Below, piece after piece: positions 29,978-47,729 of a stretch of 63,829 bases of DNA. Under the pieces are notes generated by a model. That model searched no databases and was not told where the DNA came from. It was given only the letters and a program-made list of their open reading frames with translations. The DNA comes from Fidelibacterota bacterium. GTDB taxonomy: Bacteria; Fidelibacterota; UBA8477; JABMPR01. The position numbers and the translations under genes were made by a program. Position 1 is the stretch's first letter. Every line of letters begins with the position of its first letter. The stretch is from positions 1 to 63,829 of the forward strand of contig JABMOT010000130.1 of assembly GCA_013202385.1 (NCBI GenBank), given 5' to 3'.

Positions 29978-30958
29978 TCAAAGCTTAACATCCATGGCTT
30001 CAAATTCTTGGAGCGTTTCGTGCATGCCAACCAGGGTTTGAAGTTTCTCTTTATCCACAAGAAATGTTTTTACATCTTCGTTATCCAGTTTTGAAGAAAT
30101 AAGTCCTGCCTGACGATATTTTTTAAGCTCTGCTTTATAATCATCAAGGGGTTTATTGAATTGTTCCACAAACATCTCTTCGAACAGATGTTCCTCAATT
30201 TCCGGTTCCCAACGTTGCTCGCGCATCACCTTAAATAAAAACGAAATAAATTCGAGTTCATTCTCATTTGGCTTTTGAAAATGAATGGGTACTTCGTTCC
30301 CCTGTTTCTCAATAAACCTGGATTTACAATAATCAGCAAAGAATTTGAATTTTGAAAAATCTTTTACAATGAGCATGCGACCGTGTTCAGAGCTCATTTC
30401 ACTTTTCGCCATGGGTGTGAGGGTGATTTTGTTCATAACCCCGTCCACGTGAGCAGAGGGCAGATTTAGCAGTAAGGCGATATCCTGCACCAGGGGTTTC
30501 CAGGGAGTCGATATTTCATCCTGTAGATTTGGCTCCAGACCGGCCAATACATTGCTGACCATAAGCACGACCTGGCGGGAATGATCCTGGCTGGTCAGGG
30601 TTTCCGCATGCTTATTGGCATCTCTAAGACGCTCTGCCATAATCTGAAAAAACGAGCCCATCCACTTTGGCAAGCCTTCGAGATTTTTTTGAAATAACAT
30701 GCGGCTCATTTCAATACACTTGGTATTCCTTATGACCGTCACTGTTGCTGAACGAGGATATCCGTCGATCAAAGCCATTTCACCAAAGATGGCACCTTTG
30801 CTGAGATGGGCATAAACGACTTTTTGCTTATTCTTGATGGCAGAGACTTCAACCTCTCCAGATTGGATAATGAACATGGAAGCCCCGGGATCATTTTCCT
30901 TGAAAATGATATCCCCTTCGGCAAATTCTCTCAAACCCTTTTGTTCCATGAAATTCAT
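29978..30958 (-). CDS. Cyclic-nucleotide-binding (CAP-family effector) domain protein with an uncharacterised C-terminal extension
   Basis: cNMP-binding signature GDIIFKEND.G..MFIIQSGEV...FGEMALIDGYPRSATV. A possible degenerate HTH (LVQDIALLLNLPSAHVDGVMNKI) is followed by ~150 aa of unknown function. The GGAGGAG RBS lies inside the end of the upstream gene, with a 3-nt gap. Confidence 0.8.
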   Translation of the reverse strand: MNFMEQKGLREFAEGDIIFKENDPGASMFIIQSGEVEVSAIKNKQKVVYAHLSKGAIFGEMALIDGYPRSATVTVIRNTKCIEMSRMLFQKNLEGLPKWMGSFFQIMAERLRDANKHAETLTSQDHSRQVVLMVSNVLAGLEPNLQDEISTPWKPLVQDIALLLNLPSAHVDGVMNKITLTPMAKSEMSSEHGRMLIVKDFSKFKFFADYCKSRFIEKQGNEVPIHFQKPNENELEFISFLFKVMREQRWEPEIEEHLFEEMFVEQFNKPLDDYKAELKKYRQAGLISSKLDNEDVKTFLVDKEKLQTLVGMHETLQEFEAMDVKL

Positions 30959-30961
30959 GAT

Positions 30962-33900
30962 CTACTCCTCCCCACCCATTAATATACTTTTAGCCATAAT
31001 CTGCTCTGGATCTATAGAGAGGACTCTTTTTGCCAGCTCCCTCGCATCTTCAATTCGATCAGCCTCAAGGTTCAATTCAGCGAGGCGTAACAGGCTTGGG
31101 ATATCTTCTGGATGTGTAGATATGATATCCATAAGTACCTGAACACCTTCCTGGAAATGATCACTCATGAGCAGAATTTCCGCATAATTCCGATGTGCGT
31201 CAACAAATTCTGGATCATTTTCGAAGGCGAGCTTAAATAATTTAGTTGCACCATCAATATTGCCAGCTTCTGCAGATATCATTCCTGATAGATTAAATGC
31301 TGGCGCATTGTGTGGATCCAGATTGAGCACTCGGGTCACAGTTGCGATAGCCAGTTCAAGCTTGTTTGTGGTCTTGGCTGCCAGGGCGAGCCCCAGTAGA
31401 GCCTCGACATTCAATGGATCTTCTAAAACAAGAGTGTTCAACCGATCAAAGGCTGAATTATAATCCCCTAATTCAAGGTCATGCATTCCTGAAGCCATCT
31501 GTTTTGGATGGGTTTCCGCCAGGGGGTTTTTCAGCTCGATTAGTTCTTCGTAATCAACATCAGACCATTTCTGTTCGAACAGCTTACTCCTGGTTTTCAG
31601 AGATTCTGTATAATCAATCTTATTAGCCTTAAAGGTTTGACTCCCATAGTGGTGAATAAATACCCCTTCGTGAACCATTATGGCATATCCGGCTTGCCGG
31701 ACTTTGAGACAGAGGTCATCATCCTCAAAATTGCCGGAGCCAAAGCTTTCATCAAGACCGCCGACTTCGGAATAAAGTGCTTTTTCCATGAGGATTGCAA
31801 AACCTGCAATTCGTCTGCGGGCGCTTACCACCTTTTGATTCTGCTTAAGAACCTGCCCTGCAAACTCCTCAAATCCAGCAGTCTCCTTGTAAGGGACTTC
31901 TTTCAGCATTTGCCGGCCACTGATATGGTTGGTGATGGGACCGACCATGCCGATATGGGAATCCAGCTCAAGTGCTGAAACCATTGCAGAAAGCCAACCT
32001 CTGGCAACCAGGACATCGTTGTTAAGAAGTAGAATATATTTGCCTCTAGCGGCTTCCACACCTTGGTTATTCCCTGCAGAAAATCCCCTATTTTTTGGAT
32101 TCTGTATAAGTGTATAATTTGACTCGGATTGAACGAGTTCCTTGAGGTATGCCTGAGTTCCATCCTTGGAGGCATTATCTACAAAAATGATCTCATAAGA
32201 ATATTCGGTATTCTTTTTAATACTTTCCACGCATTCTCGTGTGTATTTGAGAGCATTCCAGGTGAGAATCACGATGGAGACCAGTGGTGAATTGAGCACA
32301 GGGGGTTCTTCCAGAACCTTTTTTAATATTTTTGCGGTTGCCAGGGGTGACCAATTGTCATTGACCAACTGACGACCATTGTCAGCCAATGTCTGCCATA
32401 GTGTTTCACTCTGATATGCTTTGACCACAGCATTGGTAAAGTCTGCTGGTTCATCGGCGATCAAACAATGTACACCATCTTTGAGATGCATGCCCTCTGC
32501 CCCAATGGTGGATGTCACGACAGGTAATCCCCAGGAAAGTGCTTCGCCTATTTTGCCCTTCATACCACCGCCATATCGAAGTGGATTGACAGAAATCCGT
32601 GCGTGGAACAGATAAGGAGAAATGTCTTCCACAAAGCCGGTTACAATGATATCCTCCCTTGCCAATTCGAAGACGTTTACAGGGGGATTATTCCCGACGA
32701 TGTAGAGCTTTAAATCAGGAATGCTTGTTTTTATTGCGGGGTAGATCTCCTGGCAAAAATACAGTATGGCATCACAATTGGGCGTATGATTGAAATTTCC
32801 TACAAAAAGTAAATCTTTAGTATCCACATAATGTTTCACAAATGGAACGTTTTTGTGGATATTCGGCAGAATATGAATGGGCTTTTTAATCCCAACCTTC
32901 TTTAGCTCCTGAAGGTCCTCCTCAGTCACAACCCATAAGCTGTCTGCAGCTTTGTAGGTTTTGATTTCCAGGGATTTTCTCATTCTCGATTCTTCCAGGG
33001 CTTTTGAATCACCCGTTAGTGCAGCCTCACGGAGCTCGCGGATAAAATGAACATCTACTGTGTCCACCACGATCTGTGTTTTGGGAGAGAGTCGACGGAT
33101 GATTGGCGTATAATAGGCAGCAATGTTCCAGAAGGATAGAATGGCAACCTGAAACTGCTTTTCGTTGAACAATAATTCATAATCTATGGGTTTCATTTTG
33201 TCGAGAGCTGGATCATCGCTGATATCTCGCAGCGCTCCCACATCCTGCGGATAAACCTCCACCCCCAACTCAATGAGACGTTTGATGTAGCGGACATCAC
33301 TGGCATTGCTGATACGGGCGATAAAGACAACGTGGTAATTTGCCGCTGCAAGAATTTCGATGGTCTGAAACAGGCGCAAGGACCCCGATGCACGATCCCA
33401 CATGGGCAGTAACGGATCTGCAATGAGAATGTTAGCTCTGTTGCCCCTTTCCGCTGCTTGAATGACATTTTCAGGTTTGTGATCACACTGGTTGGACAAT
33501 TCCCAGTTCCATTTTTCCATAAATTTTACGCGGTTAATTGCCTGGAAGCGTTTAAAGCCGGAATCAATGTCCGTCCCAGCTGTCTTGCCCTCATAATGGA
33601 TCACTTCGCTGAGTGGATGATAGAAAACTTTATATCCATGCTTACGAACTTCAAAACAAAGATCCGTATCCTCATAGTAGGCTGGAGCATAGCGTTGGTC
33701 AAATCCACCAATCTCATTCCATAGATGGGTCCTAATTGTCAGGGCTGCACCGGAACAGTAATCTACGTCTCTGACATAATTAAAGCGTGGATCACGAGGA
33801 TCCATGCCGCGACCCACATTCCAGCCATCACCATCTGAGAAAATGATCCCACCGGCTTCCTGGAGAACCCCATCAGCATAGATGAGCTTTGAGCCCACAG

Positions 33901-36900
33901 CACCGCAATCAGGGCGTTCCTTCATGAGGTCAACAACAGCCTTCATCCAGCTCGGCTTCACCTCCGTATCGTTGTTGAGAAAGAGAATAAATTCACCAGA
34001 AGCATGGGCAGCACCGGAGTTACAACCACCCACAAACCCAAGATTATCAGGATGAGAGATGAATTTAAAGTGCTCGTCTTGAATACTTTTAAGATAATCA
34101 GCAGTGCCATCTGTGGAGCCATTGTCTACAATGATAACTTCGTAATTGGGATGTCGTGTATTTTTAAGTATGGATTTGATACATTTATGCGTGTATTCAA
34201 GATTATTGAAAACGGGAATAACAACTGAAACCCTAGGGAAATTGCCTTCGAGCTCCATTTTTGCGCCAGCACCTGGATCAGAAAGATGTGGCAGAAAGGC
34301 TTGCACCTGATTGTAATATTCAGCCAGATTCAGTGTATGATGTCGGCTTGAGAGCGCTTCTTCAGGGGTTTGGAAGAGAAATCTTGGTTCTTTTACCGTA
34401 CCCTTCTTCTGGACCTTGATGAAGGCTTGAGTTGGAGAGAGTTTTTTCGCCTTCAGCAGTGAAATATCCAAAGCCAGAATATCAAGAATAAGTTTTCGAT
34501 CCTGAGCGTCATCTGCGTTAAAATTGGGGCCATAACCACGATCCACAAATCGATTGATAATGGTAGCAAATGGCATAAACATTTCAATATCAAAAATTTG
34601 GATCAGTTTTGGAAGGATATCCTGGGCCCGAATGCCTTCGAAGCCATCCAGACTACAATCTCTATTGAAAGGCTGTAGATCATATTTTTTACTATAGTTA
34701 TTCAGTCTGAAACGTTGATCCAGGCGTCGCCAGATTTCCTTGACTACCTGTTGGGCATTTGGCCACATAACATGGCCATTGCGACCAATCATATCATTGA
34801 TCAGAAAGATCATATCATCACTGGAACGCTCCGAAATCTGTTTAAATAGCCGTTCCAGTTCCACCAGATGATGCAGTGAATGATTCGCCAGGACAACATC
34901 AATCGGACCCTGTAGATCGGGATTGTTAAGGTCTTGAATTTCAAAGGAGACATTCTTTAGACCTTCGCTTTTGGCAGCGGCACGAGCCCTTTCAATCATG
35001 TTTGGATTTACATCCACACCGATAAATTGAACTTTTTCCGGCGCTGCAAGCCGTTTTAACAGTCCGATCTCAGTATCGCCATTTCCACAAGCCAATGAAA
35101 GAATGAAGATGGTTCGATCCGCTCGCACAACAAAATCATCTATTTCTTTAACCCACCAGGATAGGGAATCACCCCGACCGGTTAATTCTGTCAAATGGGG
35201 TACGAGGAAATCTCGTGCATAAACATTATGTATTTCAGGAAGGTTATGAACTTCAGTATTATGTTCATAGATAGCGATTTCCTGATTTAGCTTCGACTGA
35301 TAATTTGGCAAAGAAGCGACTTGTTGTGCCCTGTCACGGCGTGGGGGTGCATTATCACAAATCTCTGAATAGGGTAACAAGCCAACTTTTGCGTAATGGG
35401 CTTCCAGGTTGCAGATATATATTTCTCCACCTGTTTTACAAATATGGTTTTCGACCCAGGGGATACAATAATCCTGTTTATACCCTCCCACTTCTTCCAT
35501 GATATTACTGTGTTTTCCACTTTTCTTCATCAGGTCATAGGTCCAATCGTGGAGTGATGAATCCTGCTCATATTCATCCTGGAAAAAATATTCATTCGAA
35601 TTCATATCTGTTCCGACCAGTTTGATTCTATTCAGCGGTCGCAACGCATGGGCGAAATTCATTGCAGAAGTAAGGGTTCCTTTAAAATGGAATAAATTTT
35701 TGTCTATTGATTTGCTCCAACCAATTTTATCTAATTCTGGATTCCAGCCATCGCCGGTGAGTGGATGAAGTGATGATACGATGATGGGGTTTGGCAGATG
35801 TTGTGCTTTTGCATATTTCCCCAATTTCTCCCCAAAAACTAATATTACGCCGTGCAGTTTCTCGTCATTGATTATTTTGTCAAGTGTTCGCAGGAAAACT
35901 CTCTGACTGGGTTCATCATTCGCATCAAATTGAATGTGATATTTGGGGATGATACCCACTAAGTCATAAAAGAGCAGGTATTTATTAATGCTGATAGAAA
36001 CATCTGCCCGGTTTATATAGGCGACCTCTTTTTTATCCAGGGTTAGTAATGATTTACCGCTTCCAAGAATAAAACTTTCCTGAGAACTTCTTTTCTTCTT
36101 ATCGTCAGCGTCACCTGTTTCAGGAAGTGAGGCAAGGGCTGCTTTATCCACTATTGCCTGCTGCTCAATTTTTTTAGCCATGCTTTCAAATTCTCGGACA
36201 ATGACTTCATATTCATCGTCTTCCCAAACCCAGCGCTGAAATTGATTCAGCCAGGGTAATTGCGCGCCGACCTCCAAGCCAATCGATTTGAGATGTTGAA
36301 CCGATGTGGCAGCACAATTTTGGGTAATTATTTTAAACATGAGAAAACGAATTGATTCGCTGAATGCACCAAATATTCCTGGTCCATTGGCGACAAACAT
36401 GTTCAGATAAGCCCTTTCATACAGAGCAATTCTTATTTCCAGATTCCAGACCACATCAGGAAATAGATTTAAATTCTTCAACGGTTCAGGGATGGGTTGA
36501 AGAGCCGCTTCAGTATCCCTGATGATAACTGGATAATACGTTTCTGAATTAAGAGAAGTGGCGAATTTTGCCCATGCTTCAAGAGTGCTGTTGCGACCTA
36601 ACTCGTAAGAACATTCTCGAAGCGTAATCGTAACTATTTTCTTCTTCCCTACATGGGTATCAATCCATTGATCGATAAACGCTCCCGCCTGTTTCGATGA
36701 TTTTACAAAAGCCAGGCTACCTGCTCTGGTAAACTCTGGTATCAGATTTGATAGTAAATATTTGCCTCGAGGGCTGTCTAAATTGTAATCCAATGGAAAT
36801 ATGTCATGATTGGCATCGGTGACATGACTAACGACTTCGCTGCGAGAACCGCAAACAGTTACACCGCTGCAAGAAGGAAACGACCAGCAGCAGGGAACCA

Positions 36901-37168
36901 AAATATTTCTTAATCTCCAGCCCATATAATCGTGATCTTTTGTTTCAGGCAGATCTTTGTTATAGTTTTCAAAGTTGCCAGGTCTGAATCCATTATCCGG
37001 CCCTGGAACAATGACAACGTGCATTTTTTGATAATCATATTTTTTACGTTCATTTTCGGCTAAGACCAAAAACGATATGATATCAAAAGTTGCTGGTGAA
37101 ACAGCCAAATCATAAAATGCGTAAATTGTATCTCTCGAGTCTTTGCTGTTGTAAAATAATTCGTTCAT
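30962..37168 (-). CDS. Giant (~2070 aa) multidomain glycosylation enzyme: GT-B-like N-domain, MptE/DUF115(Maf)-like domain, class I SAM methyltransferase, GT2, GT4 (group 1), second GT2, TPR
   Basis: Methyltransferase motif ILSLACGNGDTE (about nt 35100). GT2 no. 1 VSVVIPVFNN..IIVDNGSTDGT (from about 34235). GT4 motif GGMKGKIGEALSWGLPVVTS. GT2 no. 2 VSIVILTWN..IFVDNASKDGT (from about 32285). C-terminal TPR helices run to 30962. The preferred start is the ATG at 37168, after a GAGGG RBS. The ORF track starts at a TTG at 37186. Confidence 0.85.
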   Translation of the reverse strand: MNELFYNSKDSRDTIYAFYDLAVSPATFDIISFLVLAENERKKYDYQKMHVVIVPGPDNGFRPGNFENYNKDLPETKDHDYMGWRLRNILVPCCWSFPSCSGVTVCGSRSEVVSHVTDANHDIFPLDYNLDSPRGKYLLSNLIPEFTRAGSLAFVKSSKQAGAFIDQWIDTHVGKKKIVTITLRECSYELGRNSTLEAWAKFATSLNSETYYPVIIRDTEAALQPIPEPLKNLNLFPDVVWNLEIRIALYERAYLNMFVANGPGIFGAFSESIRFLMFKIITQNCAATSVQHLKSIGLEVGAQLPWLNQFQRWVWEDDEYEVIVREFESMAKKIEQQAIVDKAALASLPETGDADDKKKRSSQESFILGSGKSLLTLDKKEVAYINRADVSISINKYLLFYDLVGIIPKYHIQFDANDEPSQRVFLRTLDKIINDEKLHGVILVFGEKLGKYAKAQHLPNPIIVSSLHPLTGDGWNPELDKIGWSKSIDKNLFHFKGTLTSAMNFAHALRPLNRIKLVGTDMNSNEYFFQDEYEQDSSLHDWTYDLMKKSGKHSNIMEEVGGYKQDYCIPWVENHICKTGGEIYICNLEAHYAKVGLLPYSEICDNAPPRRDRAQQVASLPNYQSKLNQEIAIYEHNTEVHNLPEIHNVYARDFLVPHLTELTGRGDSLSWWVKEIDDFVVRADRTIFILSLACGNGDTEIGLLKRLAAPEKVQFIGVDVNPNMIERARAAAKSEGLKNVSFEIQDLNNPDLQGPIDVVLANHSLHHLVELERLFKQISERSSDDMIFLINDMIGRNGHVMWPNAQQVVKEIWRRLDQRFRLNNYSKKYDLQPFNRDCSLDGFEGIRAQDILPKLIQIFDIEMFMPFATIINRFVDRGYGPNFNADDAQDRKLILDILALDISLLKAKKLSPTQAFIKVQKKGTVKEPRFLFQTPEEALSSRHHTLNLAEYYNQVQAFLPHLSDPGAGAKMELEGNFPRVSVVIPVFNNLEYTHKCIKSILKNTRHPNYEVIIVDNGSTDGTADYLKSIQDEHFKFISHPDNLGFVGGCNSGAAHASGEFILFLNNDTEVKPSWMKAVVDLMKERPDCGAVGSKLIYADGVLQEAGGIIFSDGDGWNVGRGMDPRDPRFNYVRDVDYCSGAALTIRTHLWNEIGGFDQRYAPAYYEDTDLCFEVRKHGYKVFYHPLSEVIHYEGKTAGTDIDSGFKRFQAINRVKFMEKWNWELSNQCDHKPENVIQAAERGNRANILIADPLLPMWDRASGSLRLFQTIEILAAANYHVVFIARISNASDVRYIKRLIELGVEVYPQDVGALRDISDDPALDKMKPIDYELLFNEKQFQVAILSFWNIAAYYTPIIRRLSPKTQIVVDTVDVHFIRELREAALTGDSKALEESRMRKSLEIKTYKAADSLWVVTEEDLQELKKVGIKKPIHILPNIHKNVPFVKHYVDTKDLLFVGNFNHTPNCDAILYFCQEIYPAIKTSIPDLKLYIVGNNPPVNVFELAREDIIVTGFVEDISPYLFHARISVNPLRYGGGMKGKIGEALSWGLPVVTSTIGAEGMHLKDGVHCLIADEPADFTNAVVKAYQSETLWQTLADNGRQLVNDNWSPLATAKILKKVLEEPPVLNSPLVSIVILTWNALKYTRECVESIKKNTEYSYEIIFVDNASKDGTQAYLKELVQSESNYTLIQNPKNRGFSAGNNQGVEAARGKYILLLNNDVLVARGWLSAMVSALELDSHIGMVGPITNHISGRQMLKEVPYKETAGFEEFAGQVLKQNQKVVSARRRIAGFAILMEKALYSEVGGLDESFGSGNFEDDDLCLKVRQAGYAIMVHEGVFIHHYGSQTFKANKIDYTESLKTRSKLFEQKWSDVDYEELIELKNPLAETHPKQMASGMHDLELGDYNSAFDRLNTLVLEDPLNVEALLGLALAAKTTNKLELAIATVTRVLNLDPHNAPAFNLSGMISAEAGNIDGATKLFKLAFENDPEFVDAHRNYAEILLMSDHFQEGVQVLMDIISTHPEDIPSLLRLAELNLEADRIEDARELAKRVLSIDPEQIMAKSILMGGEE

Positions 37169-37182
37169 ATTAGCCCTCGATA

Positions 37183-38244
37183 TCAATCTTTTATTTTATG
37201 ATTTAGACAAACCAAAGCCCGGCCCACTTTACCTGCCTTCAATTCCGAGAAAGCCCTATTTATATCACCCAGAGAATATTCATGGGTCAACAGCGCGCTC
37301 AAATTAAGTTTATGCTCCAAGTGCCATTCCACATACTTGGGGATATCCAGGTCTGGATTTGTCTCACCACCCCAGGAACCACAGATATTTTTGCCCAATA
37401 TCAAATCCATGGGATCGATTGAGAATTGTTTTCCATGGGGAAGATTCCCGGCGATAATGCATTTACCCCCGTTGTTCATCACCGATTTGAAAGCTGTTTC
37501 CATGGAGACAATAGAGCCGGCAGATTCAATAGAATATTTCACACCTTTCCCTCCGGTTATATCCATGATTACTGCCAGAGCATCCTGGGTCGAGGCATTG
37601 ATTGTGTGAGTTGCCCCGCTTTTTGCTGCAAGCTCCAGTTTATAATCCACCACATCCACAGCAATAATTTGTCCGGCACCCAGGGCTGATGCTACAATCA
37701 CAGCACTTAACCCAATGCCCCCAACTCCAAATATGGCAACACTGTCACCGGGTTGGATGGAAGCATTATTGATAACAATCCCCGCGCCAGTTGGAATAGC
37801 ACATCCCAGCAGGGCAGCTTCTTTCAGGGGCATCTCTTTTGAAATGGGTATCAGTCTGTTTTCACTAATGACTGCTTTTTCCATGAATGTGCTTATAGCA
37901 CCTGAATTAATATTCTGCCCTTTAAGCTGATAGGTTGTCGAGGGGACATCCAGGCCAATGCCTTTTATCCAGGTCAACACAACGTGATCACCGGGTTTAA
38001 CTTTTTTAACTCCTTCACCAATTTCGAGTACCACACCAGAGCCCTCGTGACCAAGGGTGTGGGGCAGGTAATTATCTTTACCTTTAAGCCCTTCTATTTC
38101 GTTCAGTTGAGAGTGGCATAGCCCACTATAGGCAATGTCCACAAGCACTTGGCCAGCCTTAAGACTGGGAATGACCATTTCAATAGTGCGCAACGGTTCA
38201 TTTGTCTCGAAAAGTACTGCTGCCTTGGTTTTCATCGTCGTCAT
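37183..38244 (-). CDS. Zinc-dependent medium-chain alcohol dehydrogenase/reductase
   Basis: GLCHSQ...LGHEGSGVVLEIGEGV..KPGDHVV Zn-binding signature and the GVGGIGLSAV Rossmann motif. Confidence 0.85.
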   Translation of the reverse strand: MTTMKTKAAVLFETNEPLRTIEMVIPSLKAGQVLVDIAYSGLCHSQLNEIEGLKGKDNYLPHTLGHEGSGVVLEIGEGVKKVKPGDHVVLTWIKGIGLDVPSTTYQLKGQNINSGAISTFMEKAVISENRLIPISKEMPLKEAALLGCAIPTGAGIVINNASIQPGDSVAIFGVGGIGLSAVIVASALGAGQIIAVDVVDYKLELAAKSGATHTINASTQDALAVIMDITGGKGVKYSIESAGSIVSMETAFKSVMNNGGKCIIAGNLPHGKQFSIDPMDLILGKNICGSWGGETNPDLDIPKYVEWHLEHKLNLSALLTHEYSLGDINRAFSELKAGKVGRALVCLNHKIKD

Positions 38245-38258
38245 GTGTTGATCTCTTT

Positions 38259-39062
38259 TCAGTGCATGGAACGCATTTTACCGCCATCCACCACAAAACA
38301 TGATCCTGTAATCCAGGCAGCATGTTCTGAGGCTAGCAGTAAGATTAGGGGTATGATATCTTTTGGTTGTCCGATACGATTCAGCGGGATGGAATTTACT
38401 GCCAGCTGATTCTCAATAGTAGCAGCTTCATCCACAGTGATCTTTTTCTCGTGTGCAACTCGCTCAATATTTCGGGTCCAGGCCCCACTCTCAAACGTAC
38501 CTGGTACAATACAGTTTACTAATATATGATCTGGTGCAAACAGGCTGGAAAGGTGTTTACTAAGATTGATTAATGCAGCCTTACTGGCTGAGTAATGCGG
38601 GTTAAAGATACCAGGTTGTAACCCCGTTATGGATGCAATATTAACAACTCTAGGATTTTTTGATTTTTTTAAATAAGGGTGTGCCGCTTTCACAGTATGG
38701 ACAACACTGAGCACATTTTTCTTATATGTATCCATCCAATCCTTTTCATCTAAATCAAAAAATCCACCAAATTTATCAGTACTACCCACATTATTGATAA
38801 CGACATCCAGAGATCCCATGAGCGCTACTGCTTTCTCAATGGCCTGCACTACCTCCATTTTGTTGGTCACATCAGCAGGAACTGCAAAAATGTGAGAACT
38901 TATTTTTTTTAATTCGTTCAAAGCTTTGTCCAGCTTGATTTTTTGTCGGCCACATATTGTGACTGTTGATCCTGCTTCAATAAAAGCTTTGGCTAATTCT
39001 AACCCCAGACCCTCGCTGCCTCCGGTGATAAATACGTTCTTATGGGTAAATTGATACATCAT
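38259..39062 (-). CDS. Short-chain dehydrogenase/reductase (SDR)
   Basis: TGGSEGLG Rossmann motif and the YSASKAA catalytic YxxxK. The start overlaps the upstream stop (ATGA). Confidence 0.85.
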   Translation of the reverse strand: MMYQFTHKNVFITGGSEGLGLELAKAFIEAGSTVTICGRQKIKLDKALNELKKISSHIFAVPADVTNKMEVVQAIEKAVALMGSLDVVINNVGSTDKFGGFFDLDEKDWMDTYKKNVLSVVHTVKAAHPYLKKSKNPRVVNIASITGLQPGIFNPHYSASKAALINLSKHLSSLFAPDHILVNCIVPGTFESGAWTRNIERVAHEKKITVDEAATIENQLAVNSIPLNRIGQPKDIIPLILLLASEHAAWITGSCFVVDGGKMRSMH

Positions 39063-39859
39063 TTCAACCTTGTGCTATAGGTTAAGTCCCATTGGTCTCT
39101 GATGCTTAGACCTCCATCTACTGTGATGACCTGTCCGGTAACAAATGAGGCACTTTCCGAGCAGAGGAATTGGACAACATTGGCAATATCATCAGATTTT
39201 CCAACCTTCTGCAAAGGGTGACATGATTCAGCCATTTTTCTATATTCAAGATTGGCCTCACTGCTAAATCTTTCACGATGCTCATCCTGAACAATAAAAC
39301 CGGGTCTCACAGCGTTAACCCTGACTCCCTTTGGACCACCATGCACGGCCAGATAACGAGTGAGGTTGTCCAGTGCCGATTTCGCAAGATGATAAGCAGT
39401 TGATTCCTGGCCGACCATGGTAGAAGCAATGGATGAGATATTTACTATACACCCGGTTGACTTCGCCTTCCACATTTCCTCGATATATGATTGAGCCAGG
39501 AAAAGGGGGGCTTTTATGGATACATCCATGGTTAATTGCCAGTTGTCTTCTGTTTCAGCGAGGGGTGCCGTCCTACTTCCACCTCTGGCATTGTTAACAA
39601 GCGCATCAATCTTCCTGTATTTCTTAAACAGCCGGGAAAGCATTTTCTCAATATCTTGAACTATTTGGAGATCCAGGCAATAATACTCGACCTTCAATCC
39701 ACGCTCCTGACATTCAGTACTAACCGATTGAAGCCGTTTTTCATCATTATCAACCAGAATTACTTTATAACCTGACTCCGCGAATTTCAGAGCTATGTTT
39801 TTACCGATTCCGCGACCGGCACCTGTTACTATGACTCTCTTTTCAGTGTTATTTTTCAA
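39059..39859 (-). CDS. Short-chain dehydrogenase/reductase (SDR)
   Basis: TGAGRGIG and YHLAKSA (YxxxK). TTG start. Confidence 0.85.
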   Translation of the reverse strand: MKNNTEKRVIVTGAGRGIGKNIALKFAESGYKVILVDNDEKRLQSVSTECQERGLKVEYYCLDLQIVQDIEKMLSRLFKKYRKIDALVNNARGGSRTAPLAETEDNWQLTMDVSIKAPLFLAQSYIEEMWKAKSTGCIVNISSIASTMVGQESTAYHLAKSALDNLTRYLAVHGGPKGVRVNAVRPGFIVQDEHRERFSSEANLEYRKMAESCHPLQKVGKSDDIANVVQFLCSESASFVTGQVITVDGGLSIRDQWDLTYSTRLK

Positions 39860-39890
39860 TGTTCCTGCTAGTATCTATAATTTATTTTAG

Positions 39891-40769
39891 TTATGTATTA
39901 TTAATGAGCTGTGCAAATTCATGCTGCAAATTTTTGAATGTGTCCCATTCAACCATAAATTTTTGATTCCTGTTGGCAAATCCGAAACCTTTAGGATTCA
40001 CTAACTCCCGCTCCATCGCTTCCTGATGATGCCCGGGATGCTTCCATATTAAGTAGGGTTTGTCACTCAGAATGGCTCTATTGCAGGGGCCACTGGCCAT
40101 CCCCATAAATGCTGTTGACATATCCACCAGAGCCAGGTCCAATTCTAAATTCCCACCATGATTTTGCACAGAAATAACATTGTGCAATGAGCAAATCACA
40201 TCATCTACCTTGTCCAGGCCGATGATGACAAATTTCACATCAGGCGTTTCTTTTTCAGAATACAGAAAAAAGTCGAGCCAGGATTGTTGATTAGCATTAC
40301 TCTGCAGGTCCAGGGCATTATTTTTTAAATGAATGGTGATCATCTTCGCATCAGCAACATGTCTATCCATCCAGATCTGGGCTAGTTGTTTTACAGTCTC
40401 GGGAGTTTTCATCTGAACTATTTTGTGTGTTTTCTCCCAATATTTTTGAACGGTCTGGTAGCTTTCTGAATAACTGCAACTGGCGTAATCTGTATTTCCC
40501 GGCCACCTGTAGTCGGTAGCACTGACATTTACTTCTTCCTGCCTGTTAACGAAATTGAGATTCCCCAGATACGGGTTTAAGCGTGAGATAATGGTAATTA
40601 TTTCTCTTGAAGTACCTCCCCTGCTGTTGCAAACGTAGAGATCAACATTCTCAACATCTAACACTTCCCTAAGCTGGAGTAATTCTTGTTGAAATATCAG
40701 GAATTTGCCAACGCCATTCTGAATTGCGTTCAAATCCCAGACTCCGACAATATTTGTGTACTTAGTCAT
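39891..40769 (-). CDS. Hypothetical protein, paralogue of the N-terminal domain of the giant glycosyltransferase (GT-B/GT9-like fold suspected)
   Basis: Colinear similarity to residues ~1-340 of the 30962..37168 product, for example WMDRHVADAKMITIHLKNN vs WIDTHVGKKKIVTITLREC, and NLELDLALVDMSTAFMGMASGP vs NLEIRIALYERAYLNMFVANGP. Confidence 0.5.
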   Translation of the reverse strand: MTKYTNIVGVWDLNAIQNGVGKFLIFQQELLQLREVLDVENVDLYVCNSRGGTSREIITIISRLNPYLGNLNFVNRQEEVNVSATDYRWPGNTDYASCSYSESYQTVQKYWEKTHKIVQMKTPETVKQLAQIWMDRHVADAKMITIHLKNNALDLQSNANQQSWLDFFLYSEKETPDVKFVIIGLDKVDDVICSLHNVISVQNHGGNLELDLALVDMSTAFMGMASGPCNRAILSDKPYLIWKHPGHHQEAMERELVNPKGFGFANRNQKFMVEWDTFKNLQHEFAQLINNT

Positions 40770-40791
40770 TTATATTCATCATGTTCTTTAA

Positions 40792-41469
40792 CTATGGATT
40801 GATGAGTCCGACGCCAACGCCCATTAAATAATGCGACATTGGACCATACCCGGTGTGAATGACTTCATCGTTCATTGAAAACATAAATACATTCTTAAAG
40901 TACTTCGATAACAATTCCCGCATTCTACTGTGGGATAAGAGATTCACGTGCCCTTCTTTACTTCCGGCTGAGGCATATTGATTTGCCGTAATGTTTGGTG
41001 TACCCATGATAAATACACCATCCTCATGGAGACATTTGCAGATATTCTCAAAATACAAATGTTCTCTCTCAGTCGGTATATGTTCGATTACATCAAGGGA
41101 ATATGCGGCGGTAAAGACTGCATTCGGATGTTCTTTTGTGATATCCAGGCACTCCATTGAAAAGGCCAAATCGGCATAGCGCTCAAGATTATCCTCGATT
41201 AGGAGTGGCTCCCAATCCACGCCATGGATATGACCAACCGTCTGTGCAACGACGGGAACACCAAACCCATCGCCTACACCGATTTCAACAACGCTTTCAT
41301 GTCCTTCTAACATTTTAGCGACAAATTTGTATCTTGATAATAAGAAGCCTAAATGTCTAGGGTCATGATTCCATATATGCGTTGTATAGGGTCCCAACAC
41401 AGCCGGTTTTGATTTGTAATTATCAAACTGTACTTGATTTTGTTTTTCTTTTGCTTTGTTTTCGTTCAT
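40792..41469 (-). CDS. Class I SAM-dependent methyltransferase
   Basis: Motif I VVEIGVGDGFG, post-I and motif II (AYSLDVIEHI), and size are typical of the Methyltransf_11/23 type. Confidence 0.75.
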   Translation of the reverse strand: MNENKAKEKQNQVQFDNYKSKPAVLGPYTTHIWNHDPRHLGFLLSRYKFVAKMLEGHESVVEIGVGDGFGVPVVAQTVGHIHGVDWEPLLIEDNLERYADLAFSMECLDITKEHPNAVFTAAYSLDVIEHIPTEREHLYFENICKCLHEDGVFIMGTPNITANQYASAGSKEGHVNLLSHSRMRELLSKYFKNVFMFSMNDEVIHTGYGPMSHYLMGVGVGLINP

Positions 41470-41482
41470 GATACTTATCTTC

Positions 41483-42397
41483 TCATTTTTCTAATAATAT
41501 TTTAATTTTACGTTTTATGTTGGGTGAAGTAAAACCATAATATTCACACTGATCTTTATAATTTCCATAGTTGTGTGAGAATTCATTGGGAATATTAATG
41601 GCATCTGAATGGATATTATCCAATGCTTTGACTGCACGGATTACATCATCTCCGATACCGCCATATTCAGAGTGTTCTTCAATGACAATATAGTTTTTTG
41701 TTTTTGAAACACTTTCCACCAGGGTAGCGCTATCAAATGGTTTGATTGTGGGGTAATACAAAACTTCAGCGCTGATTTGATTTTGTTTTAATTCTTGAAT
41801 GCTTTCCATCACTGTACCAAGTTGGGGTCCAATGACGACAATGGTGATATCTGTCCCCTCTTGAACCACCACGGCCTCACCAAATTTGATTTTATGGTTT
41901 GGAATCTCATAGTTGTGCTTATGATCCGGCAATCTGAAATAGGTCAGGTAGTCATTCTTATAGGTCTGCTCAAATAAGATTTTGAATTCATTTGGCATGG
42001 CTGGATATACTATCTGGGTGCGAGGTAATGCTTTGATCAAAGCGATATCATCGTGACAATAATGACTGACACCCAAACCTGAATAGTCAAAAGCACTTCC
42101 AACACTAATAAGGTTGCCCCCTCTTTCCTGATAACAAAAGTCCAATTTTATTTGTTCAAAACTGCGTTCGATGAGAAAGGGTGCAATAGTGTGAGCAACC
42201 GGATGAAAACCTACATGGGACAATCCAGCAGACATACTGACAATGGTTGGCTCGCAAATTCCTACGTTGTAAAATCTTCCAGGACACGCCTGTGCAAAGG
42301 GTTGTAATGCAAAATGACTGATATCCCCTACCAGCACCACGAGCTTTGGATCGATCAAGCCAACTTCCAACATGGTTTCAGCGAACGTATTCCTCAT
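41483..42397 (-). CDS. Transketolase, C-terminal (pyrimidine-binding) subunit
   Basis: Split-transketolase B-subunit pattern (VGDISHF...GICEPTIVSMSAGLS..., C-terminal domain). ATGA overlap with the N-terminal subunit gene. Confidence 0.85.
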   Translation of the reverse strand: MRNTFAETMLEVGLIDPKLVVLVGDISHFALQPFAQACPGRFYNVGICEPTIVSMSAGLSHVGFHPVAHTIAPFLIERSFEQIKLDFCYQERGGNLISVGSAFDYSGLGVSHYCHDDIALIKALPRTQIVYPAMPNEFKILFEQTYKNDYLTYFRLPDHKHNYEIPNHKIKFGEAVVVQEGTDITIVVIGPQLGTVMESIQELKQNQISAEVLYYPTIKPFDSATLVESVSKTKNYIVIEEHSEYGGIGDDVIRAVKALDNIHSDAINIPNEFSHNYGNYKDQCEYYGFTSPNIKRKIKILLEK

Positions 42398-43170
42398 GAT
42401 GATAATTCTTCCATAATTTCAGCGTACTCCAGGGGATTAGGAATTTTATGATGCCACGGACCGTGGGTTTCCATAAAACGTACACCTTTGCCTTTAATCG
42501 TTCTGGCGATAATGACAGTTGGTTTTCCATTCGAAGTTCTGCTGAATTTATTAAAAGCAATATCCAACTCAGCTTCATTATGACCGTCACATTCCAGTAC
42601 ATTCCAACCAAACGATTCCCATTGTTTTATGATGTTGGGATGTGGCATGATTTGGGCTGCAGACCCGTTATAATCCACGATGAGGCAGAGGTTTTCCAGG
42701 TTCAAATTTTGCGCGACAAGGGCTGATTCCCAGACCGTCCCTTCATGGGACTCCCCATCACCTACGAGGACAAATACTTTGTTTTCTTTTTTATTGATTT
42801 TATGGCCCAGGGCAATCCCGACTGAATATGGAAAACCATGTCCCAATGATCCAGTCGATGCCTCCACTCCAGGAATTTTTACCCGATCAGGATGACCACC
42901 CAGCATTGCGTTGAATTTGCCATAATTATCCAGATCAGCTTGCGTGATGAAGCCATATTTTTCAAGCACAACATAAAGTGCGACTCCGGCATGACCTTTA
43001 CTTAAAATAAAATAATCCCGATCCGTCCATTCTGGATTGGCACTGTCGTATTTCAGATGATTAGCATACAGCGTGTCAATAATATCGATAACCGAAAAGC
43101 TACTGGGTATATGACCTTCTCCTCCATTGGTGATCGTATTTACAATTGTTTTACGCAGTTCAGTATTCAT
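42394..43170 (-). CDS. Transketolase, N-terminal (ThDP-binding) subunit
   Basis: GHIPSSFS, SKGHAGVALY, GSLGHGFPYSVG and VLVGDGESHEG ThDP-binding motifs. Confidence 0.85.
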   Translation of the reverse strand: MNTELRKTIVNTITNGGEGHIPSSFSVIDIIDTLYANHLKYDSANPEWTDRDYFILSKGHAGVALYVVLEKYGFITQADLDNYGKFNAMLGGHPDRVKIPGVEASTGSLGHGFPYSVGIALGHKINKKENKVFVLVGDGESHEGTVWESALVAQNLNLENLCLIVDYNGSAAQIMPHPNIIKQWESFGWNVLECDGHNEAELDIAFNKFSRTSNGKPTVIIARTIKGKGVRFMETHGPWHHKIPNPLEYAEIMEELSS

Positions 43171-43195
43171 GTTAATTAAACCTCATATCTTAAGC

Positions 43196-44680
43196 TTAGT
43201 GATGGATGCCGAGCTTAGTCCGGGTTTGTTTCCGATGATCATTCAATTGCTCCACACTCATAAACATCATTCGAGCAATTTTTTCTATATTTTCAGGTGT
43301 TTTAAAATTTATCCTATCCCATTCATAGGCTCTTAATACTTTCAGTTCCAATGGGGTAAATTCATCTGTAGTAATAAATCCTTCACTGGTACCAAAATAT
43401 TTTGGATTCCGAAAATCGAAATTTTCGGGTAATAAGTTTTGTTCTTTGGCAATTTTATACAAATCTGTTTTGGGATACGGAGTGGCTATATGGAATGAAA
43501 CCAAATCAAAGTTCATTGCTTCGGCAAACCGGAACGTTTCTCTGATCTCATCCCAGGTTTCTCCAGGCATACCAATCACAAAATTAGCCGCAATCTCGAT
43601 GCCTAACTCATTGCACTTTCTCACTATATTTGGGAATATGCCAAGTTTAACTGGTTTTCGAATAATTTTATGCAGCACCCTGTCATTACCAGATTCTACG
43701 GAAACTGTGATCATCTTGCATCCAGAGTCTTTCATTAATTCCAATAATTCATCATCAAGATGCCAGGCAGAAACATTGGGCATTTTCCAGGTAATATTAT
43801 ATTTACGGTCAATGAATGCTTGCATAATGGTCATGGCATGCTCTCTATCATCTAAAAAACATTCATCGAGAAAACTCAGATGACGCACACCATGATTTTG
43901 AATTAAACTATCAATCTCTTCCAGCACATCCTCAGTAGAACGATAATTTATTCCTCTACCTCTGATCGTCCGTGCTGCACAAAAAGAGCAATTGTATCTG
44001 CAGCCATACGAAGTCAGTAAGATTGCGGTTGGTCCCTGAAAGCTGTAGTTGTATTCTTTGGCAGACTGCGTTAAATAAAACTCAACATCAATCTTTGAAT
44101 AGTCCGGCTTAATGTTGGGATCAATATTAATCTCAGTACTTTTCGGTCGACGAATAATGTTCTCGCCATTAGCATCGCAATAACCGATACCTGAAATTTT
44201 TCTGGCTTCCTCAAATTGCCCTTCAAGAAGATGGTGAATGAATTCCAAAATGCCACCCTCTGCCGGACCAATGAAGATATAGTCGATATTTTTATCCTGA
44301 AGGGCTTCCTCACTCATGAGGCTCGGATAAATTCCACCAAATACCGTGATGCAATCCGGAGTTGCCTGCTTCACTATTTCAAATGCCTTGTGATATTGCT
44401 GGAAATATTCTACTGAAATGCCGGAGACCAGAAATATCCTGGGTGAGATGGTCTTGATCTGCTGTAAACATTCTGCTTCACTTAAATCCAACGCATTTGC
44501 ATCCAGAAGGAAGAAATCGTGATTTTCCTTCAAAATGGCTGTAAGAATTAAGGCTGAATGCGGTACCACCATCCAGGGGCGCTTGTTAAACCAACGCGTA
44601 TTCGGAATAAACAAGAGTACATCATTGGGTGTTGAGCTTTTCACCCTTGTGGGGCTATCAGATTTGTTGATGTGGTTCAT
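43196..44680 (-). CDS. B12-binding-domain radical SAM enzyme (class B)
   Basis: N-terminal cobalamin-binding-like Rossmann region, then the CRYNCSFC (CxxxCxxC) cluster and the radical SAM core. GGAGAG RBS. Confidence 0.85.
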   Translation of the reverse strand: MNHINKSDSPTRVKSSTPNDVLLFIPNTRWFNKRPWMVVPHSALILTAILKENHDFFLLDANALDLSEAECLQQIKTISPRIFLVSGISVEYFQQYHKAFEIVKQATPDCITVFGGIYPSLMSEEALQDKNIDYIFIGPAEGGILEFIHHLLEGQFEEARKISGIGYCDANGENIIRRPKSTEINIDPNIKPDYSKIDVEFYLTQSAKEYNYSFQGPTAILLTSYGCRYNCSFCAARTIRGRGINYRSTEDVLEEIDSLIQNHGVRHLSFLDECFLDDREHAMTIMQAFIDRKYNITWKMPNVSAWHLDDELLELMKDSGCKMITVSVESGNDRVLHKIIRKPVKLGIFPNIVRKCNELGIEIAANFVIGMPGETWDEIRETFRFAEAMNFDLVSFHIATPYPKTDLYKIAKEQNLLPENFDFRNPKYFGTSEGFITTDEFTPLELKVLRAYEWDRINFKTPENIEKIARMMFMSVEQLNDHRKQTRTKLGIHH

Positions 44681-44710
44681 TATATCTCTCCATTTCTCAG
44701 CATCATCAGA

Positions 44711-45472
44711 CTAGAAGAAACATCTTCCCTGTCCACCATCTACAGTAATAGCAGACCCGACGATAAAGGATGCATGTTGGGAGCATAAAAAAGTCACAAT
44801 GTTACCTATCTCCTCAGGTGACCCAAACCGTTGGATGGCCATCCTTTCAGACAGATATTTCTCTACGTGTTCAGGTCGCTCTTTTGAAGTCATATCCCAA
44901 TAGCCTCCCTCGGTGAAAACGGCTCCGGGTAATACGGCAGATATATTTATGCCGTCAGGAGATACATAGCGGCCTAAACTACGGGTATAGGCATTCAGCG
45001 CTGCTTTTATGGAACAATAAGGTGCGGTGCCTTGATTTTCCAGGGAGGCTATTGAAGAAATATGAACAATGCGTCCCCACTTGTTTAATCTCATCTGCGG
45101 AATCAGCATTTGATTCAGCTCAACCGCTATCTCAAGATTAAAACGATAAACCTGACGCCACTCTTCTATACCACACAGTGGATCTGTGAAACCTAAATTT
45201 CCACCAACATTATGTACAACAATATCGGGATGTCCGAATTTGTCAATCATTTCGGCAACCATTTTTTGGGGATTCCCCTCTGGAACCAGATCATAGGCAA
45301 GCCCAATATGATTTCCAGGATGGGTGTCCAAAAATGAGTTGATATCCCCTTGATTTCGGGCAACGATGGCGACCTGGACACCTTCTTTTGCCAGGCTGTC
45401 TGCGATAGCTCTTCCAAGACCACGACTTGCTCCCGTGACCAATGCTTTTTTATTTTTAATTCCTAAGTCCAT
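44711..45472 (-). CDS. Short-chain dehydrogenase/reductase (SDR)
   Basis: TGASRGLG and YCSIKAA (YxxxK). Confidence 0.85.
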   Translation of the reverse strand: MDLGIKNKKALVTGASRGLGRAIADSLAKEGVQVAIVARNQGDINSFLDTHPGNHIGLAYDLVPEGNPQKMVAEMIDKFGHPDIVVHNVGGNLGFTDPLCGIEEWRQVYRFNLEIAVELNQMLIPQMRLNKWGRIVHISSIASLENQGTAPYCSIKAALNAYTRSLGRYVSPDGINISAVLPGAVFTEGGYWDMTSKERPEHVEKYLSERMAIQRFGSPEEIGNIVTFLCSQHASFIVGSAITVDGGQGRCFF

Positions 45473-45479
45473 GTGCTTC

Positions 45480-46673: not shown

Positions 46674-47729
46674 TTAAAATGGACCTTTAAACCAGTCCCC
46701 TGGCACATCATGGGGTGTATCACCGCGTTCAACCAATTCAGATCCAACAATGTTTTTATTAAACATCTCTGCAATAGTGTCAATAATATCCTCTGACCTC
46801 TTATAAAATCCGCGAGTTAAGCCCCTGCTGGTAGGCGTTGGGAAATCTGGAAGTGCAAGTCGTTTGGGAGCTTGCTTAAGCGCATTAAAACAATCCATGC
46901 TTACTCTGGCGACAATTTCACCGGCAACAGAATTCGTCGCCACGCCAGTGTCAATAGCAAGCAGTCGGCCTGTTTTCTTCACGGAAGCATAGATAAGGTC
47001 ATAATCCAGAGGCTTAATGCTAAGTAGGTCAATTAATTCGCAGGAGATTCCCTCTCTTTTTAAAATCTCCACAGCATGCAAGGCTTCAACAGACATGTAT
47101 GAGAATGAAACGACTGTAATATCATCACCTTGCGTCAAACAGGCTGCCTTCCCGATTGGAACCCGGTAGTCACCATCGGGAACTTCACCGTTTAAATTAT
47201 GCAACCAGCGGTGTTCGATAAATATGACGGGATTGTCATCAAAAATACTCTCAAGCAGCAAGCCCTTCGCATCAGCGGCCGTGGTTGGCATGACCACTTT
47301 TAGCCCGGGGATATGGGCGAATAGTGCCTGTAAGTTTTGTGAATGTGTTGGTCCTTGCCCCCATCCACGACCAACGATAAGTCTGATGGTAATGGGAACA
47401 GAGCTATTGCCGCCGAACATATAATGCCACTTTGCCGCACTATTTACCAGCTGGTCCATGGCCAACAGAAAGAAATCCAGCCTTTGATGGGTCATGATGG
47501 GACGAACGCCATTCAATGCTGCGCCAACTGCGATTCCAGTCATTGCATTTTCAGATGTGGGCATATCAAAAACCCGCGAACTGCCAAATTTTTCCTGCAA
47601 ACCACTTGAAGTACCGAAAACCCCTTTAGGATCCGGTATTCCCAACCCGTAACAGATTACTGACTGATCCATTTCCATTGACGTTGCAATGGCATCATTG
47701 ATGGCTTGTGAGTAAGTGATAATACTCAT
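46674..47729 (-). CDS. ThDP-dependent 2-oxoacid dehydrogenase E1 beta-subunit homologue
   Basis: Transketolase pyrimidine-binding plus C-terminal domains typical of PDH/AcoB E1 beta (FDMPTSENAMTGIAVGAA, HSQN...). The start overlaps the E1-alpha stop (ATGA). Confidence 0.85.
   Translation of the reverse strand: MSIITYSQAINDAIATSMEMDQSVICYGLGIPDPKGVFGTSSGLQEKFGSSRVFDMPTSENAMTGIAVGAALNGVRPIMTHQRLDFFLLAMDQLVNSAAKWHYMFGGNSSVPITIRLIVGRGWGQGPTHSQNLQALFAHIPGLKVVMPTTAADAKGLLLESIFDDNPVIFIEHRWLHNLNGEVPDGDYRVPIGKAACLTQGDDITVVSFSYMSVEALHAVEILKREGISCELIDLLSIKPLDYDLIYASVKKTGRLLAIDTGVATNSVAGEIVARVSMDCFNALKQAPKRLALPDFPTPTSRGLTRGFYKRSEDIIDTIAEMFNKNIVGSELVERGDTPHDVPGDWFKGPF

Follow-up and report, generated by a model that had tools for sequence, protein, structure and literature searches.

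We analyzed a gene of a Fidelibacterota bacterium (GTDB lineage Bacteria; Fidelibacterota; UBA8477; JABMPR01) that encodes a giant multi-domain glycosyltransferase (GT). The gene lies on contig JABMOT010000130.1 of NCBI GenBank assembly GCA_013202385.1, and the whole stretch of 63,829 nucleotides that was analyzed is called the window. The gene sits in a minus-strand gene array and forms a single unbroken open reading frame (ORF) at 30962..37186, which has 2,074 codons when counted from the mechanical ORF start, a TTG at 37186. The ATG at 37168, the start chosen by public gene callers, gives a product of 2,068 amino acids (aa), and this confirmed the uninterrupted ORF of about 2070 aa described in an earlier reading of the DNA letters (the sequence-only reading). 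It exceeds every other ORF of the window by a wide margin, the runner-up having 1,546 aa. From the N-terminus to the C-terminus the protein consists of a first domain (D1), a variable linker, a second domain (D2), a class I methyltransferase, a GT2 domain, a GT4 domain, another GT2 domain, and tetratricopeptide repeats (TPR). No membrane segment was predicted, and no 19-mer exceeded a Kyte-Doolittle mean of 1.51.

The components of this protein occur as separate genes in other lineages, as they would if the giant ORF were an assembly or frameshift artefact joining separate genes. The chance of such an artefact is negligible, and it was excluded because the identical 2,068-aa protein is found on at least three contigs from different assemblies (Joint Genome Institute metagenome 3300032736, an NCBI metagenome-assembled genome (MAG), and Logan), and because an orthologue, P0130, aligns with it end to end. 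P0130 (2,057 aa, on a 164-kb contig) showed 69% identity over 99% of the length with the domain order unchanged, which answers the search for an orthologue of the same fusion order that had been proposed together with the continuity check. The global alignment of the two proteins was gap-free from the linker to the C-terminus, and all gaps (14 positions) fell inside D1. Uniform base composition along the gene, matching that of the rest of the window, also argues against a join. P0130 keeps every catalytic-type motif checked, including LACGNGD, VDNGS/NNDTE, and VDNAS/NNDVL, and from this alignment every module appears to be under constraint. One source names the identical protein 'MAG: glycosyltransferase [Candidatus Marinimicrobia bacterium]'. 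The architecture was present in just two of 5.8 billion clustered proteins, the window protein and P0130; the next match, P0131, shared the GT2/GT4 domains only. The remark that this architecture had not been described was fair, though its parts co-occur as separate genes. The coordinates of the gene, its modules, and its neighbors are collected in the table.

Table. Features of the giant gene and its surroundings in the window, with the identity of each module to orthologue P0130
Feature	Position	Strand	Basis or remark	Identity to P0130
Whole gene, 2,068-aa multi-domain glycosyltransferase	30962..37168	-	Stop codon 30962-30964	
D1, unannotated GT-B-fold domain, GT9 heptosyltransferase-like, aa ~6-335	36164..37153	-	AlphaFold2 (AF2) + Foldseek	62%
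Inter-domain linker, Lys/Ser-rich, aa 336-364	36077..36163	-		10%
D2, divergent MptE-like/DUF115 domain (Maf-type, sialyltransferase-like), aa ~365-605	35354..36076	-	Family profile + AF2/Foldseek	84% (most conserved)
Class I S-adenosylmethionine (SAM)-dependent methyltransferase core, aa 683-800, motif LACGNGD	34769..35122	-	Pfam Methyltransf_31/25/12/11	71%
Conserved extension after methyltransferase, aa 801-977	34238-34768	-		
First GT2, aa 978-1210, motifs VDNGS, NNDTE	33539..34237	-	PF00535/PF13641	76% (GT2a)
GT4 (GT-B), aa ~1211-1622, motif GEALSWGLPVV	32303..33538	-	PF13692, PF00534	67%
Second GT2, aa 1623-1855, motifs VDNAS, NNDVL	31604..32302	-	PF00535, PF13712, PF13506	70% (GT2b)
C-terminal TPR, aa ~1890-2068	30965..31501	-	TPR_19/16/17/14	53% (least conserved domain)
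Cyclic nucleotide (cNMP)-binding protein	29978..30958	-	Starts 4 nt past giant gene stop codon; syntenic in orthologous locus	
GT2 + TPR protein, 452 aa	28563..29921	-	Syntenic in orthologous locus	
Zn-dependent alcohol dehydrogenase (Zn-ADH)	37183..38244	-	Immediately upstream of giant gene	
Variable sugar-modification cassette	38259..48478	-	Two short-chain dehydrogenases/reductases (SDRs), distant D1 paralogue (39891-40769), methyltransferase, split transketolase, B12-radical SAM, SDR, C-methyltransferase-type enzyme, E1-beta, 5'-truncated E1-alpha	
Short flagellin gene, candidate acceptor	52278..53138	-	~15 kb upstream of giant gene, same strand	

Pfam confirmed the methyltransferase, GT2, GT4, second GT2, and TPR in the order in which the sequence-only reading had listed them, and the motifs quoted there were present, as was the Lys/Ser-rich linker. 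Methyltransf_31 matched aa 683-794 (7e-17), Methyltransf_31/25/12/11 all exceeded the cutoff, and the closest PDB match of this domain was CouO (8e-6). Glyco_trans_1_4 (PF13692) matched aa 1451-1586 with 1.6e-24 and 87 bits, and PF00534 gave 29.6 bits; Pfam matches in the N-terminal half of the GT4 domain were weak. The GT2 family PF00535 matched two stretches above the cutoff, with 214 bits summed over the whole protein. The Pfam extents were aa 978-1208 for the first GT2 domain, aa ~1626-1850 for the second, and aa ~1890-2060 for TPR. The PDB matches were chondroitin synthase and GalT1 for the first GT2 domain, and chondroitin synthase (2.8e-18) for the second. The N-terminal approximately 680 aa had no Pfam or NCBIfam match and were modeled as two well-folding domains, D1 and D2. 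Five transferase-like domains (D1, D2, GT2, GT4, GT2) were counted by fold or profile.

D1 matched no Pfam family at E<=10, hence not Glyco_transf_9 either, and no NCBIfam family at E<=0.01. Its AF2 model, built from a 40-sequence alignment, had a mean predicted local distance difference test score (pLDDT) of 93 and a predicted TM-score of 0.91. Foldseek against the PDB returned GT-B enzymes with GT9 first (3tov_A, E 2.6e-7, TM 0.53; 1psw, 4.3e-6; WaaC 2h1h/2gt1), followed by TagF, UDP-GlcNAc 2-epimerases, NodZ, and POFUT1, and because of this list D1 is, on its predicted structure, a fifth glycosyltransferase-fold domain. The sequence-only reading had missed the GT-B, GT9-like fold of these first approximately 340 aa, and had called them a paralogue of the separate gene at 39891..40769. 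The relationship is real (BLASTP E 2e-7; hhalign of the D1 family profile 95% probability, E 2e-8, 234 columns), but it is a distant one, with 26% identity over 96 aa. The D1 family comprises at least 147 homologous clusters in a word-limited search, most of them stand-alone proteins of about 400 aa without a Pfam domain; the closest homologue, P0007, showed 49% identity over 330 residues. D1 is also fused with TPR (about 520 aa, mostly in alphaproteobacterial MAGs) and with GT2 (about 800 aa), and two tandem D1 copies follow a genuine PF01973 domain (67 bits) in protein P0088. The family profile found only noise among PDB sequences, and tblastn against plasmids gave no match. The source names of D1 and D2 homologues were solely 'hypothetical protein' or 'tetratricopeptide repeat protein'. 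We regard the D1 family, by its modeled fold, as a new unannotated GT-B family of GT9-like type.

For D2, the sequence-only reading had proposed an MptE-like/DUF115 domain of the Maf flagellin glycosyltransferases. The call stood at the superfamily level. PF01973 was the sole recurrent family among the aligned D2 members, 10 of the 59 matching it at E<=0.01, and the D2 family consensus matched profile positions 23-167 of 171 with E 1.4e-7. The score of the consensus (31.9 bits) and that of the best family member (30.7 bits) were both just below the gathering score of 34.6 bits, and window D2 itself had no PF01973 match even at E<=10. A D2 relative of 33% identity, P0128, matched PF01973 at 3.2e-7. 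The AF2 model of D2 had a pLDDT of 90, and Foldseek against the PDB placed human ST8SiaIII, a GT29 sialyltransferase, at the top (9.8e-4), with the Magnetospirillum Maf 5MU5 (1.3e-3, probability 1.00, 20% identity over 169 columns) and the Methanocaldococcus jannaschii MptE HPPK (8sd5, 2.9e-3) also listed. These E-values are marginal, and the match list was confined to the sialyltransferase/Maf/MptE fold group. As modeled, D2 shares the core fold of the Maf central domain, a GT-A-variant, sialyltransferase-like fold. Within the MptE/Maf superfamily, D2 represents a divergent clade that falls just short of the Pfam model; it is not a Maf orthologue, being an approximately 240-aa core whose closest stand-alone relatives sat in polysaccharide or NeuB loci and never next to flagellin genes, and in this respect the earlier Maf claim was not supported as worded.

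The residues N504, G519, and H553 were invariant across the D2 family, and G369, N395, D415, and D521 were nearly so; by analogy with sialyltransferase chemistry, H553 would be the catalytic base. An exhaustive profile search gave 298 D2 representatives at E<=1e-3, and stand-alone homologues had 240-335 aa and 44-51% identity. A metagenome scan with the D2 alignment found 4 loci only, tblastn against GenBank phages found no match, and the family profile found only noise among PDB sequences. Alignments by hhalign with single PF01973 proteins were taken as corroboration only. The D2 profile aligned weakly with P0088 (E 0.008), with motifs in the same order, yet with just 4.9% probability, and with the MptE-like protein of locus L037 it reached 94% probability over 46 columns only. 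Since PF01973 is named for the archaeal 6-hydroxymethylpterin diphosphokinase MptE, and the M. jannaschii HPPK is within the top three structural matches, D2 might be no glycosyltransferase at all but a module that binds nucleotides and acts on a precursor of the sugar, for instance a pyrophosphokinase of the MptE type. We consider this very improbable. In the structural comparison, MptE is placed no higher than the GT29 sialyltransferase and Maf, and D2 relatives adjoin NeuB and cytidine monophosphate (CMP)-sugar synthetase genes and occur in fusions with GT4 and TPR, which fits a transferase that consumes a CMP-sugar.

The gene neighborhoods of D2 relatives were also investigated. A NeuB gene adjoined the D2 homologue in six of nine independent contexts (L030, L031, L041, and the TPR-GT4-D2 fusions P0200, P0178, and P0179), mostly together with a CMP-sugar synthetase gene, and because of this linkage the D2 donor is likely a CMP-ulosonic acid. 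L030 is a Wzm/Wzt_C polysaccharide locus, and the remaining contexts were GT-rich glycan loci, one of them (L034) with Wzt_C. The TPR-GT4-D2 fusion recurs in other lineages with lengths from 798 to 1,856 aa (P0178; P0179, L044 311-2707; P0200, L043 2-4102), each copy adjoining a CTP_transf_3 gene and a NeuB-SAF-AP_endonuc_2 gene of 748-750 aa, and often near sulfotransferases or TylF-type methyltransferases. At L031 10001-12878, a D2 homologue of 51% identity lies beside NeuB, a methyltransferase, and a GT29 sialyltransferase-family gene on a phage-like contig with DNA polymerase A, primase, RecA-like, and SbcCD-like genes. The P0088 contig (L036 7204-9876) carries mostly small unannotated ORFs and is viral-looking. 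Phages may carry nonulosonate-transfer modules. We regard the D2 clade, with about 300 representatives, as a new Pfam-invisible, NeuB-linked transferase family of MptE/Maf type.

At the D1 loci, a split transketolase was present in 10 of 27 genome loci, an HldE and/or GmhA-like SIS gene in about ten, and a Zn-ADH and a B12-radical SAM enzyme were often found. The Dehalococcoidia locus L037 has individual genes for a split transketolase, SDRs, DegT, methyltransferases, Zn-ADH, D1, SIS, B12-radical SAM, CMP-synthetase, NeuB, a 285-aa MptE-like protein, GT2, and GT4. Because D1, the MptE-like protein, GT2, GT4, and methyltransferases are thus encoded side by side, the Marinimicrobia giant protein is, judged by gene content, a fusion of the components of one pathway; P0088, in which PF01973 and D1 are joined, was counted as further support, as were the recurrent TPR-GT4-D2 fusions. 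In MAGs of Marinimicrobia, Dehalococcoidia, Planctomycetia, and Lentisphaerae, a Zn-ADH with 47-76% identity to that of the window lies upstream of D1. The two adjoin directly in the window, L002, and L003/L037 (63% identity in the Dehalococcoidia MAG), and the Zn-ADH lies 1-3 kb upstream in L004 and L007, with an HldE homologue between them in L007. This suggests that Zn-ADH and D1 form a conserved two-gene functional unit.

In the window, the Zn-ADH, giant, cNMP-binding, and GT2+TPR genes and two-component genes are syntenic with those of the orthologous locus L002, and the cassette is swapped (window 37183-48478, L002 1-9935). The window cassette has a split transketolase, B12-radical SAM, SDRs, and the D1 paralogue, and that of L002 has HldE, a GmhA-like SIS gene, epimerases, DegT, and a sulfotransferase; such swapping is typical of glycan-diversifying islands. 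The cNMP protein has 326 aa, with an N-terminal cNMP-binding domain and about 230 unannotated C-terminal aa. Its gene is separated from the giant gene by a 4-nt gap in the window and overlaps it by 4 nt in L002, and so it appears to be translationally coupled to it. An adenylate/guanylate cyclase and FIST gene pair lies 20 kb off, at 9250-11399, and cyclic-nucleotide control of glycosylation is possible. The best NCBIfam match of the GT2+TPR neighbor was the SunS family peptide S-glycosyltransferase, below cutoff. Four genes encode C-terminal sorting domains (Por_Secre_tail) of the type IX secretion system (4099-7503, 12453-15167, 15391-16410, and 18525-23165), one product being a 1,546-aa protein with lamin-tail domains, a CotH kinase domain, and a beta-helix; these domains fit an organism of the Fibrobacteres-Chlorobi-Bacteroidetes group.

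On the other side of the cassette lies the short flagellin gene. The central region of flagellin (aa 151-215) has 26% Ser/Thr, and its gene has a strong terminator of its own at 51993-51970. Between this terminator and the genes for a methyl-accepting chemotaxis protein (MCP) and CheW, a 325-aa protein is encoded at 50567-51544 that has a signal-peptide-like N-terminus, a C-terminal Phe, no Pfam match, and a weak LbtU-porin-like NCBIfam match (4e-4); it is probably an outer-membrane beta-barrel. The thiamine diphosphate-dependent E1-alpha gene at the cassette end (47726-48806) is 5'-truncated and lacks the first approximately 103 residues, as the 325-aa E1-alpha orthologue in L002 matches the window through residues 104-325 only (48394..47729). 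The window copy may be non-functional. Because E1-alpha is truncated and the CheW ORF (48393-48806) occupies the place of its N-terminus, the left border of the cassette next to CheW looks like a rearrangement breakpoint.

From the observed ORF, the domain identities and folds, the conservation of the fusion, and the neighborhood associations, we propose donor sugars, an order of action, and an acceptor. The protein would be a soluble cytoplasmic enzyme that carries an entire glycan-building pathway on one chain. With nucleotide sugars as donors, D1, the two GT2 domains, and GT4 would contribute one sugar each, and the sugar transferred by D1 would most plausibly be of heptose or other higher-carbon type, supplied by the adjacent variable cassette. 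D2 would transfer a CMP-activated ulosonic acid (a nonulosonate or 3-deoxy-D-manno-oct-2-ulosonic acid), the methyltransferase would O-methylate the glycan, and the C-terminal TPR would dock on the acceptor or a partner. By analogy with known systems, the acceptor would most likely be a cytoplasmic protein prior to its export, with the short flagellin encoded 15 kb upstream as the best candidate. Because genes for NeuB, CMP-synthetase, HldE, and GmhA are missing from the 64-kb window, the donor assignments rest on relatives.

The best explanation of the data as a whole is such a soluble one-chain glycan-building enzyme whose most likely acceptor is a cytoplasmic protein, with flagellin as the best candidate, and we give it slightly better than an even chance. 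The part that describes a multi-enzyme glycan builder is, on its own, much better supported, and flagellin as the specific acceptor is tentative, falling somewhat short of an even chance. Assembly of the glycan directly on a protein substrate, as had been supposed from the sequence, is plausible on indirect evidence. A protein acceptor, and flagellin specifically, is favored because of the TPR tail, the lack of a predicted membrane segment, the SunS-like GT2+TPR partner, the absence of lipid-carrier and export genes from the window, the nearby flagellin gene, and the published finding that TPR determines the binding of flagellin in FlmG (TPR + GT-B; PMC7591256) and in Shewanella Maf-1 (MAF_flag10 + TPR; bioRxiv 10.1101/2023.12.03.569772). 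The flagellin transferases in the cited work (PMC7591256; bioRxiv 10.1101/2023.12.03.569772) each add one sugar. The presence of flagellin, CheW, and MCP genes just upstream of the cluster was also counted for a protein-directed enzyme. However, several findings weigh against this explanation. No flagellin homologue was found within 8-10 kb of about 28 D1 loci or 9 D2 contexts, D1 homologues are present in Dehalococcoidia and Saccharibacteria MAGs, and two stand-alone D2 homologues sit in ABC-transporter (Wzt_C) polysaccharide loci (L030, L034). Dehalococcoidia and Saccharibacteria are generally non-flagellated. In the window, D2 fails the PF01973 model, the ulosonic acid and heptose genes named above are missing, and the flagellin terminator, the porin-like gene, MCP, and CheW lie between flagellin and the cluster. 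Because the cassette border is a putative rearrangement breakpoint, the proximity of flagellin may be accidental.

These findings bear on two other acceptors. The giant protein could both polymerize and terminate a polysaccharide of the cell surface, of O-antigen or capsule type, which would be assembled on a lipid carrier at the membrane's inner face, with an ABC transporter from another part of the genome to export it; the GT2, GT4, and GT2 domains would polymerize, D2 and/or the methyltransferase would cap, and TPR would serve complex assembly. Enterobacterial WbdD and WbbB are precedents for such chain capping. Near the stand-alone D2 homologues of L030 and L034 lie genes for methyltransferases, for GT2/GT4 proteins of several domains, and for Wzm/Wzt with the cap-binding domain Wzt_C, another D2 homologue adjoins GT4, GT2, and WsaF-type genes, the best PDB relative of the GT2 domains, chondroitin synthase, is a polymerase, and neither the D1 nor the D2 family shows a tie to flagellin genes. 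In contrast, neither the 64-kb window, which covers about 30 kb on either side of the giant gene, nor the 26-kb locus of the orthologue had a Wzm/Wzt ABC transporter or a Pfam match typical of a flippase, polymerase, or initiating phosphoglycosyltransferase, so the linkage expected of such a system was absent from both. The giant protein also has no membrane-anchoring segment, and its TPR tail and SunS-like neighbor indicate protein partners. We consider a polysaccharide product unlikely, though the likeliest of the alternatives. The same TPR tail, SunS-like neighbor, and missing export genes would fit any protein, so that the acceptor could be another secreted or surface protein or a peptide, with flagellin nearby by chance. 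The rearrangement scar beside CheW, the separate flagellin terminator, and the occurrence of related modules in MAGs of generally non-flagellated lineages all agree with this; against it, the operon shows no evident gene for another acceptor, and all experimentally characterized systems that combine TPR with a Maf-type or GT-B nonulosonate transferase act on flagellin (PMC7591256; 10.1101/2023.12.03.569772). We judge a protein acceptor other than flagellin to be rather improbable.

Multi-domain glycosyltransferases and TPR-tethered protein glycosyltransferases are both already known; what is new is the seven-module arrangement, seen in two proteins of the searched collection. The fusion acts as a Rosetta stone, in that it links two sizeable unannotated families, D1 and the D2 clade, to one glycan pathway and suggests what class of donor each may use, D1 a sugar of heptose or other higher-carbon type and D2 a CMP-ulosonic acid. 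If flagellin is the acceptor, a single gene would make up a compact system that places a methylated O-glycan of several sugars on a protein, which is attractive for glyco-engineering and for the study of how flagellin acquires oligosaccharide glycans. If the acceptor is a polysaccharide, the protein would be an extreme polymerase-terminator fusion. The surface chemistry of the Marinimicrobia, an uncultured marine phylum, appears to be largely unstudied, and a literature search returned nothing relevant on transketolase-bearing flagellin glycosylation islands, Marinimicrobia flagella together with glycosyltransferases, or MptE-like glycosyltransferases.

The giant protein was compared with four known systems. 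The GT9 ADP-heptose heptosyltransferases (WaaC/WaaF; 3tov, 1psw, 2h1h) are the best structural matches to D1, and HldE and GmhA-like genes are often present at D1-family loci. However, the identity of D1 to GT9 structures is only 9-11%, D1 has no Glyco_transf_9 Pfam match, and D1 loci are not lipopolysaccharide-core loci. The enzymes of ABC-dependent O-antigen and capsule synthesis, WbdA/WbdD, WbbB, and K4CP/KfoC, resemble the giant protein in having several transferase domains per chain and in the presence of methyltransferase or ulosonic-acid-adding terminator modules; stand-alone D2 homologues in Wzt_C loci add to this likeness. Unlike these enzymes, the giant protein is encoded without transporter or lipid-carrier genes nearby, and to our knowledge none of them has seven modules including TPR, D1, and D2.

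FlmG of Caulobacter and Brevundimonas (PMC7591256) has an N-terminal TPR and a C-terminal GT-B domain, and the giant protein likewise pairs TPR with a Pfam-silent GT-B domain; the likeness to D1 lies in the architecture alone. Proteins of about 520 aa that join TPR and D1 are present in Alphaproteobacteria. In the giant protein, however, the domain order is reversed and TPR and D1 are far apart, and the TPR+D1 locus that was examined had no flagellar genes. As for Maf (MAF_flag10/DUF115, PF01973; Shewanella oneidensis Maf-1 and Magnetospirillum Maf 5MU5), window D2 reaches no Pfam score and is a bare core of about 240 aa without the Maf N-terminal region, it is set among four other transferase domains approximately 1,300 aa from the TPR, and its relatives were not found in flagellar loci. 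The window does not show the Maf-style placement within a locus for flagella and nonulosonic acid biosynthesis, and no GlfM-like gene, the alternative to a TPR domain as flagellin-binding determinant, was recognized. In contrast, D2 is predicted to share the Maf core fold, the D2 family consensus covers almost the entire PF01973 profile, D2 relatives have NeuB and CMP-synthetase genes as neighbors, and the polypeptide ends, like Maf-1, in a TPR domain. A doubtful extension is a one-chain cytoplasmic glycan assembly line, in which TPR would dock on flagellin or another export substrate, a complete hetero-oligosaccharide would be built, methylated, and capped with an ulosonic acid directly on the protein, and D1 and the D2 clade would be two new glycosyltransferase families. 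If true, it would unite the GT-B, Maf-type, and TPR domains of the two known flagellin glycosyltransferase classes on one chain.

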